A stretch of 64,000 nucleotides of DNA, from the NCBI GenBank assembly GCA_963843015.1, contig CAWJIR010000003.1:3431-67430 (forward strand). The letters run 5' to 3'. The position numbers and the translations under genes were made by a program. This document shows positions 33,641 to 35,777 of this stretch, piece after piece; positions within the stretch are counted from its first letter, which is position 1; every line of letters starts with the position of its first letter. The notes beneath the pieces were generated by a model. It made no database searches, had not been told where the DNA came from, and saw only the letters and a program-made list of their open reading frames with translations. Source of the stretch: an uncultured Chloroflexia bacterium. GTDB lineage: Bacteria > Chloroflexota > Limnocylindria > QHBO01.

Positions 33641-33716
33641 GCGGGAGTAGCTCAGTTGGCAGAGCGTCAGCCTTCCAAGCTGAATGTCGCGGGTTCGATC
33701 CCCGTCTCCCGCTCCA
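33641..33716 (+). tRNA. tRNA-Gly (anticodon TCC)
   Basis: Cloverleaf GCGGGAG/CTCCCGC, anticodon loop CTTCCAA, GGTTCGATC T-arm, encoded CCA; TACAAT -10 at 33625-33630. Confidence 0.97.
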
Positions 33717-34054: not shown

Positions 34055-34438
34055 CTAGCCGTCCTCGCTGGTTCCGTCGTCCTCGTCGTCCTCCGGCTCA
34101 CCGATCTCGAAATCGATGCAGACGTACGGCTCGTCACCGGTCACCCACGCCCGATGGCCCGGGCCGATCCAGAGGTGGTCGCCGGGACCGGCCGTGACCT
34201 CGTCCCCCTCATCGGTCAGGTAGCGGATCCGGCCCGAGATGACGTACTCGCGATGGACCATCTGGCAGCTCTCGTCGCCATCGGTGTGGGGCTTGACGTA
34301 CTCGTCCCAGCTCCAGCCCGGCTGGAGCACCGACCGAAAGACCATCGAGTCGCCGACGACGGTGTAGCCCGATGCGCCGGCGTCACCGTCGGAGAATGCC
34401 TCGTCCGGCTGATCGAGGTTCTTGACGATGATGGCCAT
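34055..34438 (-). CDS. cupin domain protein
   Basis: LQPGWSWDEYVKP...SCQMVH...PGHRAWVTGDEP; AAGGAG RBS. Confidence 0.85.
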   Translation of the reverse strand: MAIIVKNLDQPDEAFSDGDAGASGYTVVGDSMVFRSVLQPGWSWDEYVKPHTDGDESCQMVHREYVISGRIRYLTDEGDEVTAGPGDHLWIGPGHRAWVTGDEPYVCIDFEIGEPEDDEDDGTSEDG

Positions 34439-34485
34439 GACGCGCTCCTTGAAGGCGATGAACCGATTCGGCCCGGAAACGACGC

Positions 34486-34524
34486 AGGGGCCCGGCAAAC
34501 CCCTCTCGGAGTCGCAAGGCCCCT
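34486..34524 (-). terminator. 3' hairpin closing the large ncRNA
   Basis: AGGGGCC...GGCCCCU stem with inner UCC-GAGA-GGG; followed by GCGUCGUUU. Confidence 0.5.
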
Positions 34525-34532
34525 ATCGGCCC

Positions 34533-35013
34533 GCCAATCGGTCCGGGTTTCACGCCGGACAAACGGACGCGCCCGCGTCGCGCCCGACGCTGGACTCCGG
34601 GGCCGAATCTGCCGTCCAAGCAGGACGACCGACGTGACACCAGAACCGTTGTCGGACTTCTTTGGCGACGCCTGACTTGAAGTGCCGCCCGACGACGAGC
34701 CCGCCGCCGAACCAGGACCGTAGGCCAGTCCAGTCGAGTTCGAGCGTCACCCGAAGGTGACATCCCACCGGTTCCCGACTGTAGCCAGCTCGCCCACGAC
34801 ATTGTCACCGAGTCATCCCGGTCGTCCCTGTCACGGTATTTCGACCGTGCCGGGGGTCAACCGGGCGGTGGCAGTGAGTCGTCTGCGCGCTGGAGCGGGC
34901 GCTTACCTCCGCTTCCTACGCTACCAGCACCCGGCGAAAGCACCGTTGCCAACGAATCGACTTCGGTGCCTCCGTACCACCCGAGTCGCGGCAAGCCGCG
35001 GTGTTCAGATGGC
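34533..35013 (-). ncRNA. large structured ncRNA (~480 nt), OLE-RNA-like candidate
   Basis: No credible ORF; UUCG and CUUG tetraloop hairpins with G-U pairs valid only on the minus strand; 5' and 3' ends pair; own promoter; ordered motifs resembling recalled OLE sequence. Confidence refers to it being a structured RNA; the OLE assignment is about 0.5. Confidence 0.75.
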
Positions 35014-35019
35014 TGGCCG

Positions 35020-35048
35020 AGTCTACCCCTTTCATCGGGGCGTGACGA
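35020..35048 (-). promoter_or_regulatory. promoter of the large ncRNA
   Basis: TCGTCA-17 bp-TAGACT on the minus strand, 6-7 nt before the predicted 5' end. Confidence 0.55.
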
Positions 35049-35063
35049 GCATTTTCTGCAGGG

Positions 35064-35777
35064 TCATGCGGGCTTCAGCGAGGCCAGCAGGCGGAGCATC
35101 GGGGTGGCCGTCGCAAAGGCATCGGCGAGGACGTCCGGGAGCTCCGGCGACAGGGCCTCGGCATCGGTCAGGCCGCGACCGAACAGGACGTCCTTGAGCT
35201 TCAGGAGCTCCGCGTCGGGGTGGTCGGCGGGATACCCGGGCGGGACGCGCTTGAGCCGATCCTCGGCCTCGACCTCGCCGAACGCCTTCTTGAACTTCGG
35301 GGCGTCGATGACCGCGTGCAGCCGCTTCGGCTCGTCGACCACGATCCGTCGCCACGCCTCGAGGAGCGGACGGTCGGCGTGCCACATCCCGCCGCCGACG
35401 TAGACGTTCTCGGGAGAAAACGAGAAGTAGCCGCCAGGCCGATGAACCGCCTCGGTCCGACCCCGCGCCGCCGTGCCCGCGGTGTCCGGGTCGTCCCACG
35501 GAAAGCTCGCGCTGACATACGTCTTGTACGGCGACTTGTCCTTCGAGAACCGGACGTCGCGGTAGATCCGAAACGGAGAGCCGGTGTCGGCTCGCAGCGG
35601 GATCTTCCGCTTCCGGAACTGCTCGCCAAGATCGGTGCAGAGCGCTTCGAGCGGCTCCTTCAGCAACCGCTCGTAGTCCGCCTTGCGCGGCTGGAACCAG
35701 CCGCGGTCATTGTTCAGCGACAGCTCGAGAGGAAGTGGGTGGCTTCGGGCGCTGAACCCGGTGAATGCGCCGGGCAT
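35064..35777 (-). CDS. DUF2461 family protein
   Basis: NNDRGWF, FRIYRDVRFSKDKSPYKT, LKRVPPGYPADHP...LLKLK. Confidence 0.9.
   Translation of the reverse strand: MPGAFTGFSARSHPLPLELSLNNDRGWFQPRKADYERLLKEPLEALCTDLGEQFRKRKIPLRADTGSPFRIYRDVRFSKDKSPYKTYVSASFPWDDPDTAGTAARGRTEAVHRPGGYFSFSPENVYVGGGMWHADRPLLEAWRRIVVDEPKRLHAVIDAPKFKKAFGEVEAEDRLKRVPPGYPADHPDAELLKLKDVLFGRGLTDAEALSPELPDVLADAFATATPMLRLLASLKPA

Follow-up and report, generated by a model that had tools for sequence, protein, structure and literature searches.

A probable new class of large, structured noncoding RNA encoded by a stand-alone gene in uncultured Limnocylindria (Chloroflexota)

Background

To our knowledge, the large, elaborately folded bacterial RNAs that have no known function comprise just OLE, GOLLD, ROOL, raiA, and a few others. 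These large ornate bacterial noncoding RNAs (ncRNAs) are a descriptive category rather than a homologous family, and the hosts of one of them, OLE, are anaerobic and/or extremophilic Bacillota. OLE is described as an ncRNA of ~550-600 nucleotides (nt) with an elaborate conserved fold, which is very abundant and not essential in every relative; in most hosts its gene, ole, is said to colocalize with oapA, the gene for a small transmembrane protein (PMC12054373). ROOL is reported to reach the abundance of 16S ribosomal RNA in some cases yet to be non-essential, and ROOL and GOLLD are placed in phages and prophages, often near transfer RNA (tRNA) islands (PMC12286853). The raiA motif RNA is described as a structured ncRNA that is transcribed on its own (PMC10861870). 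As presented in these sources, each such RNA has led to new biology, for instance ribonucleoprotein particles bound to membranes and nanocages built of RNA alone (PMC12054373, PMC12286853). The present analysis concerns a stretch of 64,000 nt (the window) from contig CAWJIR010000003.1 of an uncultured bacterium of the class Limnocylindria, phylum Chloroflexota, and within it a minus-strand locus of about 540 nt. This locus is very likely a stand-alone gene for a structured, highly expressed ncRNA that belongs to no catalogued family and would represent a new trans-acting ornate class.

Large ornate bacterial ncRNAs are described as exceeding 400 nt, with many covarying helices, with pseudoknots and unpaired nucleotides that are conserved, transcribed independently, and free of an open reading frame (ORF), and the RNA shows all of these features. 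Like OLE, it is large, ornately folded, very abundant, and dispensable in some relatives; unlike OLE, it has neither a match to the OLE model (RF01071) nor a conserved neighbor of the oapA type, it has its own promoter rather than being embedded in a conserved operon, and its hosts are Limnocylindria of soil and freshwater, not extremophilic or anaerobic Bacillota. With ROOL and GOLLD it shares large size, pseudoknots, an ornate fold, abundance, dispensability, and the lack of a known protein partner, but it matches neither of their Rfam models, lies on the chromosome in stable synteny, was in none of the viral contigs searched, and has no consistent tRNA neighborhood. Like raiA (which, at ~200 nt, is much shorter), it is structured, non-coding, and transcribed alone, but it has no Rfam match. 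A strong promoter, a stand-alone gene, abundance, and a covarying structure also liken it to the housekeeping RNAs (RNase P RNA, tmRNA, signal recognition particle (SRP) RNA, and 6S RNA); searches of several near-complete genomes did not detect it, however, and it is thus no universal housekeeping RNA.

A strand-specific, covarying fold

The RNA lies in a 625-nt gap (34439-35063) between a DUF2461 gene and the next minus-strand gene. A first-pass annotation, made from the letters of the window, had seen here a gap without a credible ORF that encodes an ornate ncRNA of about 500 nt on the minus strand, and both proposals are borne out. When folded as RNA, the minus strand of 34470-35030 reaches -294.9 kcal/mol (z score -4.63), which is equaled by none of 100 shuffled sequences, versus a z score of -1.46 for the plus strand, for which 7 of 100 shuffles are equally good. 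The G-U pairs point the same way, as had also been proposed at first pass. They make up 367 of 2009 paired cells in an alignment of sequences from the genus of the window and 200 of 1048 in a core alignment of five genera (18-19%), and because they leave the opposite strand just 76-78% canonical, the RNA strand is fixed as minus. The ncRNA is thus encoded on the minus strand, at approximately 34479-35013.

Homologs with compensatory changes, which the first-pass annotation had named as the check on its proposal, were found in number: the set amounts to 57 distinct full-length sequences, whose identity to the window is 48-96%. An RNAalifold model of 12 same-genus sequences has 168 pairs in 24 helices, and 94.7% of its 2009 cells can pair, versus 37-48% when the partners are slid by 1-3 columns; double changes are seen at 50 of the 168 pairs, versus 10-20 when slid, and at most 1 in 500 shuffles attains any of five measures. 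The core alignment (five genera, 30 sequences) has 96.6% of its 1048 cells paired (27-45% when slid), with double changes at 22 of 35 pairs (2-5 when slid) and 0 of 500 shuffles attaining the observed values. These controls argue against a chance fold. (It should be noted that alignments A1, A3, A4, and A5 and the tallies include three genomes flagged as unpublished, G015 (L009), G021 (L034), and G153 (L042); apart from one pseudoknot variant given below, the conclusions are independent of these rows.)

High-GC DNA yields spurious long ORFs and low folding energies, and six ORFs of 45-173 amino acids do overlap the region, so that a protein-coding or small-ORF region, or a functionless GC-rich fold arising by chance, has to be considered. 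However, no ORF within 34439-35063 is conserved: each of the six is open in just 3-15 of 30 homologs, and in the same test the length differences among homologs are divisible by three in only 6-10 of the 30. Furthermore, in a sister species (G077) the syntenic site holds a coding stretch with about the same GC content, which folds with a z score of +1.06, versus -4.63 here. With the covariation controls added, the probability of a coding region or a chance fold is close to nil.

Domains and pseudoknots

The RNA gene (34479-35013; this and all following elements are on the minus strand) would give a product of ~535-545 nt with both ends predicted, the 5' end from the spacing to the -10 element, and the 3' end from the point at which conservation and the last covarying helix stop. 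The 5' domain (34936-35011) consists of two long hairpins, SL1 (35011-34978, with an apical hairpin at 35000-34987) and SL2 (34973-34936), whose helices 1-3 covary within the genus. This domain is too divergent for alignment across genera; it was folded alone in 46 of the 57 sequences, a count that leaves out the other 11, and 41 gave the same two-hairpin shape. Downstream lies the near-invariant stretch GCUGGUAGCGUAGGA (34914-34928). A helix spans 34863-34932 (GGGUG.CUGGU, 34932-34923, with GCCA.CGCCC, 34872-34863). This helix, whose register is tentative, is 91-97% canonical in the 57 sequences and shows in addition a U-A to A-U swap, and it encloses the conserved hairpin GGAAGCGG...CCGCUCC (34913-34892). 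It competes with the outer three pairs of another helix, and the assignment of the junction is tentative as well. Helix 4 of the same-genus model (34935-25/34720-11) was rejected; it has an A.G at one pair in 35 of the 57 sequences.

After the conserved element GGGAUGAC (34812-34819) comes the most conserved core (34665-34787), in which five helices covary in 30 sequences of five genera. These are 34781-74/34738-31; 34762-55/34752-45, which carries a UUCG loop; 34730-26/34720-16; 34710-04/34695-89; and 34688-81/34672-65. The core is followed by a variable long hairpin domain (34582-34657; helices 17-20), which is closed by GUCCGAC/GUCGGGC and covaries within the genus, with double changes at 6 of the 8 pairs of helix 20 in the same-genus set. 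In the 3' domain (34479-34581), the 3' tail GCGUCGU (34485-34479) pairs back to GCGACGC (34581-34575), ~100 nt upstream, and is 91% canonical in the 57 sequences; this tail helix encloses an inner hairpin at 34573-34528 and a terminal hairpin at 34524-34486. Helices 21 and 23 are 91% and 99% canonical in the same 57 sequences, and the GNRA loop of the terminal hairpin is kept in 12 of 12 same-genus sequences.

Two pseudoknots were found by a mutual-information scan followed by inspection of all 57 sequences. In pseudoknot 1, GUAGG (34919-34915), within GCUGGUAGCGUAGGA, pairs with CCUAC (34724-34720), which is provided by the loop GCCUA of the core hairpin 34730-34716; compensated variants are GUGGG/CCCAC and GUAGA/UCUAC. 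In pseudoknot 2, UGAC (34815-34812), within GGGAUGAC, pairs with GUCA (34676-34673) in the loop CAAGUCAGG of the last core helix, with the compensated variants UCGU/ACGA, UCAC/GUGA, and ACGAC/GUCGU. (The UCAC/GUGA variant is confined to L042, one of the unpublished-flagged rows, and is the one conclusion that depends on them.) Over both pseudoknots, 99.6% of 506 cells pair in the 57 sequences, versus 24-58% when slid, and 6 of 9 pairs change doubly; pseudoknot 2 is ambiguous by eye in two sequences, L087 and L090.

The local hairpins drawn at first pass all occur in the sequence where they had been placed. They are CGCGG-CUUG-CCGCG (35000-34987), GCACCG/CGGUGC (34969-34940), CACGGU/ACCGUG (34849-34832), GUCACC-UUCG-GGUGAC (34761-34746), and GUCCGG/CCGGAC (34560-34541), together with the terminal hairpin (34524-34486). 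The proposed long-range pairing of a 5' GCCAUC with a 3' GAUUGGC is not borne out: the 5' strand pairs locally, in a covarying helix (35011-35007/34982-34978), and the 3' element reads GAUAGGC in 8 of 11 same-genus homologs, GACGGGC in 2 of 11, and GAUUGGC in none.

Presence in soil RNA libraries

Part of the stretch is present in twenty public runs, fifteen of which are soil or rhizosphere RNA libraries; the runs come from nine studies. The evidence for expression consists of contigs from four soil or rhizosphere RNA runs of four studies, which cover 34526-35000; the uncovered parts (34300-34516 and 35013-35200) were not counted as evidence for a discrete transcript. Mean word depth is high, up to 1336 in a run of 326 million letters, and a run of only 6.8 million letters gave a 409-nt contig at depth 17.6. 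Adaptor sequence is found at the contig ends 34526/34530 and 34977/35000. Such depth in small soil data sets would be hard to explain by carry-over of DNA.

Promoter and independence from neighboring genes

A -10 hexamer, TAGACT, lies at 35020-35025, as the first-pass annotation had noted. The pattern TAnAnT is kept at this one alignment position in 30 of 30 sequences (12 of 12 from the same genus and 18 of 18 from other genera), and the hexamer reads TAGACT in the window and 21 others of the 30. In 15 of 18 other-genus loci, TTGACC is positioned 17 nt upstream of the -10 element and is preceded by an A-rich tract, and a promoter scan recovers TTGACC-17-TAGACT in one of them (L030). The corresponding -35 sequence of the window, TCGTCA (35043-35048), matches the consensus at 3 of 6 positions; a simple consensus scan of the window, where just the -10 box is good, finds no full sigma-70 promoter and likewise no U-rich (canonical U-tract) terminator. 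Upstream of the -35 position, the conserved A-rich element GCAGAAAA (35052-35059) aligns with GAAAAC located just 5' of TTGACC in other genera (L030-L047). This tract is kept even where the -35 hexamer is not, as in the window's genus with its poor -35, and it looks like an UP-like promoter element.

The genes that flank the RNA were surveyed by a Pfam scan of the ORFs around 29 homolog loci and the window. They are stable within a genus, differ between genera, and are often on the opposite strand. A DUF2461 gene is upstream in the window and 8 same-genus loci and in no other genera, and the cupin-like gene is downstream in the window and L002-L005 only. In a second genus a glyoxalase gene is downstream and a gene for a TPMT-like methyltransferase upstream; in a third, the RNA is flanked by DUF4446 and MgsA genes that both run on the other strand. 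Among the 29 loci and the window, different genera have no adjacent gene in common (no genome-wide search for OapA, OapB, or OapC was made). The RNA gene is present in one copy in the host genome. Because the -10 element is kept in 30 of 30 sequences and TTGACC-17 in 15 of 18, the neighbors vary, and the gene is single-copy, it is an independent gene.

These observations bear on the idea that the RNA acts in cis, as a leader of the riboswitch or attenuator kind for the gene downstream, or that it is a long 3' untranslated region of the DUF2461 transcript. In the window and four close relatives the RNA does lie between two same-strand genes, as this would require. But the downstream gene varies and is on the opposite strand in many loci, the upstream gene also differs by genus, a promoter separates the upstream gene from the RNA, and the conserved block closes in a stable hairpin domain before the next gene; moreover, 540 nt with more than 20 helices far exceeds known leaders. 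A leader or 3' untranslated region is therefore scarcely credible.

Distribution

Of the 17 other genomes in the window's genus, 11 gave full-length matches of 70-89% identity in a DNA search. (Blastn matches of 22-35 nt, L013-L017, were set aside; three of these, of 25-35 nt, were the sole matches in other genera.) A covariance model of the core, R1, has matches at E ≤ 0.01 in 36 of the family's 151 genomes. By genus the counts are 12/17, 3/4, 1/1, 7/8, 11/29, and 1/6, where one of the 12 and the single match among the 6 are weak, and the remaining genera have none, including 0/38, 0/14, and 0/8 genomes. (A search at the level of the order is a search of the same family, since the order holds one family, and added nothing.) A broader model, R2, extends the RNA to a second Limnocylindria family, with strong matches in 4 of 151 genomes and weak ones in two; the four strong loci are full-length and have the same promoter and 3' tail. 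With sampled genomes and stricter filters, the searches of three other Limnocylindria families (49, 6, and 1 genomes) and of other Chloroflexota classes (136 genomes) gave no match. The weak matches L088 and L089 (28.6 and 25.4 bits), L093, and L094, as well as G008, G089, G097, and a second place in G129, were set aside, by score or on inspection, as probable chance or coding matches. The host genome likewise has a weak second R1 match (G000:C12:78858-78948, minus strand; 21.6 bits, E 0.005), which is probably due to chance.

A degenerate 2-block pattern matched 23 records among 185,579 species genomes, 22 of which carry already-known cores, and 31 metagenome contigs. All but two of the 23 records are titled as metagenome-assembled genomes of Candidatus Limnocylindria, Chloroflexota, or Chloroflexia. 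The other two, L051 and L062, are titled Steroidobacteraceae and Actinomycetota. The Steroidobacteraceae-titled record has the very same core as a locus in genus g34; the sequence of L062 is new, 70% identical, with a TAGAUU -10 box, and resembles the window's genus. These titles probably reflect mis-binning or loose labeling rather than presence in other phyla.

The RNA is an accessory gene, patchily distributed in two Limnocylindria families. In genera g1 and g34, about half of the species have it. Even with lax filters, no credible match (the best being 17.4 bits) came from five genomes of 91-99% completeness, three from the window's genus and two from g34, the two best-sampled genera. At the syntenic site of one g34 genome (G067, L135) the flanking genes are ~11 nt apart and leave no gap, and in the sister species G077 (L134, 2792-3478, plus strand) a gene for a Glyoxalase_6 and Pterin_4a protein, next to MgsA, occupies the site of the RNA. 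(In another genus, glyoxalase genes are among the neighbors of the RNA.) In G011 and G013, the ORF that follows DUF2461 begins ~16-30 nt on and differs from the cupin-like gene; the RNA would therefore not fit there, and nothing more is implied.

Patchiness of this kind might result from horizontal carriage, in which case the RNA would be an ornate RNA of the ROOL/GOLLD kind borne by a phage or mobile element. A tRNA gene lies ~760 nt away in the window, tRNA genes are found within 1.5 kb in 6 of 33 loci, and ROOL and GOLLD are described near tRNA islands in phages and prophages (PMC12286853). However, there is no Rfam match to ROOL or GOLLD, the 2-block pattern that finds 23 genome records and 31 metagenome contigs finds 0 in 2.9 million viral contigs, synteny is stable within a genus beside ordinary chromosomal genes, 27 of the 33 loci have no tRNA nearby, and the gene is single-copy. 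Carriage by a mobile element is thus very unlikely. With 6 of 33 loci, an association of the RNA with tRNA genes was also ruled out.

Comparison with known RNA families

When the whole window was scanned with the 4227 models of Rfam 15 at gathering thresholds, the only match was a tRNA (33641-33713, plus strand). Within 34300-35200, carried to E 10, the best match is 16.8 bits against a cut-off of 59.5 bits, and OLE is not among the matches; in 18 homolog loci from all clades, only three tRNAs were found. OLE, ROOL, GOLLD, raiA, and all other Rfam 15 families were thus rejected for lack of a match, and the RNA belongs to none of them. The RNA was also not found in the full text of the literature searched, with subscription journals and supplementary files outside the scope of that search. 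The fallback proposal of the first-pass annotation, a new large RNA class, is likewise supported.

The first choice of that annotation was different, namely that the RNA is a shortened or relocated member of the OLE family, based on a resemblance of sequence motifs. Size, ornate fold, and abundance do resemble those described for OLE (PMC12054373). But the Rfam scan that the annotation had suggested, run with RF01071 included (gathering score, 50 bits), is silent in the window and the 18 homolog loci, which does not bear out the motif resemblance, and RF01071 finds nothing at E ≤ 1 in five whole genomes, a search that had no positive control and in which the control genomes are silent as well. 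In addition, no neighboring gene is common across genera, whereas ole and oapA are described as colocalizing (PMC12054373), and the host belongs to Chloroflexota, not Bacillota. (That the host is high-GC, non-Bacillota, and lacks an oapA context had been recognized at first pass.) Membership in the OLE family is accordingly exceedingly improbable.

The RNA is not the RNase P RNA, tmRNA, or SRP RNA of its genome; in 5 of 5 genomes, that of the window among them, the genes for these score above their cut-offs at other places. For 6S RNA the situation is less direct. The 6S model, RF00013, is undetected in 10 of 10 family genomes (G000, G012, G005, G054, G046, G013, G001, G011, G067, and G077), but it detects 6S RNA in just 5 of 14 control genomes, and so its silence is weak; the 6S RNA of this lineage is either too divergent for RF00013 or missing. 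RF00013 has no match in the RNA region itself. The RNA could then be a functional analogue of 6S or Ms1 RNA, which binds RNA polymerase and replaces the undetected 6S RNA, and its great abundance and strong, housekeeping-type promoter would fit this idea. 6S RNA forms a rod-like helix, in the middle of which a bubble imitates an open promoter. The predicted fold of the present RNA, in contrast, is multi-domain with pseudoknots, and its length is about three times that of 6S. Furthermore, the genomes that carry the RNA and those that lack it are alike in having no detected 6S, which rules out a complementary pattern, and the RNA itself was not found in near-complete genomes. A 6S-like role is thus quite unlikely.

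Possible roles

Taken together, the analyses establish the structure and strand of the RNA, its independence from the genes around it, its high depth in RNA libraries, and its place outside all known families. They are best read as a gene that stands alone, with its own promoter and with a 3' domain that closes the conserved block. The transcript folds into a pair of long 5' hairpins, a conserved core of several helices that two pseudoknots hold together, the variable hairpin domain, and the 3' domain, whose tail pairs back onto the body. We infer that such an RNA acts in trans through its three-dimensional fold, with the conserved loops and junction nucleotides as putative contact surfaces for proteins, other copies of the RNA, or a substrate. 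By analogy with what is thought for OLE, ROOL, GOLLD, and raiA, the RNA most likely forms the center either of a ribonucleoprotein or of an assembly made of RNA alone. Taken separately, a ribonucleoprotein scaffold is a reasonable, tentative candidate, an RNA-only assembly is possible but rather doubtful, a ribozyme is improbable, and a polymerase-binding role is slightly less probable again; some other role takes up what is left of the probability.

Several points weigh against this interpretation. The RNA contigs show neither strand, ends, nor level, and the ends of the RNA are inferred. In the four RNA runs the contigs end at 34526-34548, just ahead of the terminal hairpin, and do not reach the last 45-70 nt of the conserved block; possible reasons are loss of a GC-rich end in the library or assembly and processing of the mature RNA at its 3' side. 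The window promoter lacks a good -35 element, and there is no canonical terminator. Some helices of the same-genus model, such as the old helix 4, fail in the wider set, and helices 8, 10, and 17-20 are beyond judgment, as the alignment across genera is unreliable there. Much of the column covariation consists of two-state differences that separate a few clades, and because of this the independent events are far fewer than the cell counts. Novelty is judged from Rfam 15 and a full-text literature search that did not extend to supplementary files. Finally, the putative trans-acting scaffold role is drawn by analogy.

With these points considered, the balance tips slightly toward the RNA being the founding member of an undescribed class of ornate RNA, ~550 nt long with more than 20 helices and two pseudoknots, which would be chromosomal, a dominant Limnocylindria transcript, and without a known counterpart in its role. 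Such a founding member might be a new ribozyme, work within a new ribonucleoprotein machine, or build a higher-order assembly out of RNA alone. The candidate differs from the described ornate RNAs in that it comes from another phylum and an uncultured class, is chromosomal, and is cleanly present or absent among sister species. Limnocylindria are an abundant uncultured lineage of soil and freshwater, and the candidate reaches high depth in small soil metatranscriptomes; it also shows that abundant transcripts in soil RNA surveys are missed by current annotation libraries.

Genes around the RNA in the window

The upstream neighbor, outside the RNA, is the DUF2461 protein gene (35064-35777, minus strand; Pfam E 2.6e-54), whose stop codon is at 35064-35066. 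The downstream neighbor, also outside the RNA, is at 34055-34438 (minus strand) and starts with an ATG at 34438-34436. The first-pass annotation had called it a cupin gene; a gene is indeed present, but its cupin identity is weak, as the match to Cupin_2 (E 4e-4, 20.4 bits) is under the cut-off of 27.2 bits. The tRNA gene on the plus strand (33641-33713; 71.8 bits with Rfam) lies ~760 nt past the 3' end of the RNA, and the equivalent tRNA in the close relatives L002, L005, and L010 is tRNA-Gly(UCC). In L011 and L012, a tRNA-Arg(UCG) is found ~75 nt upstream of the RNA.

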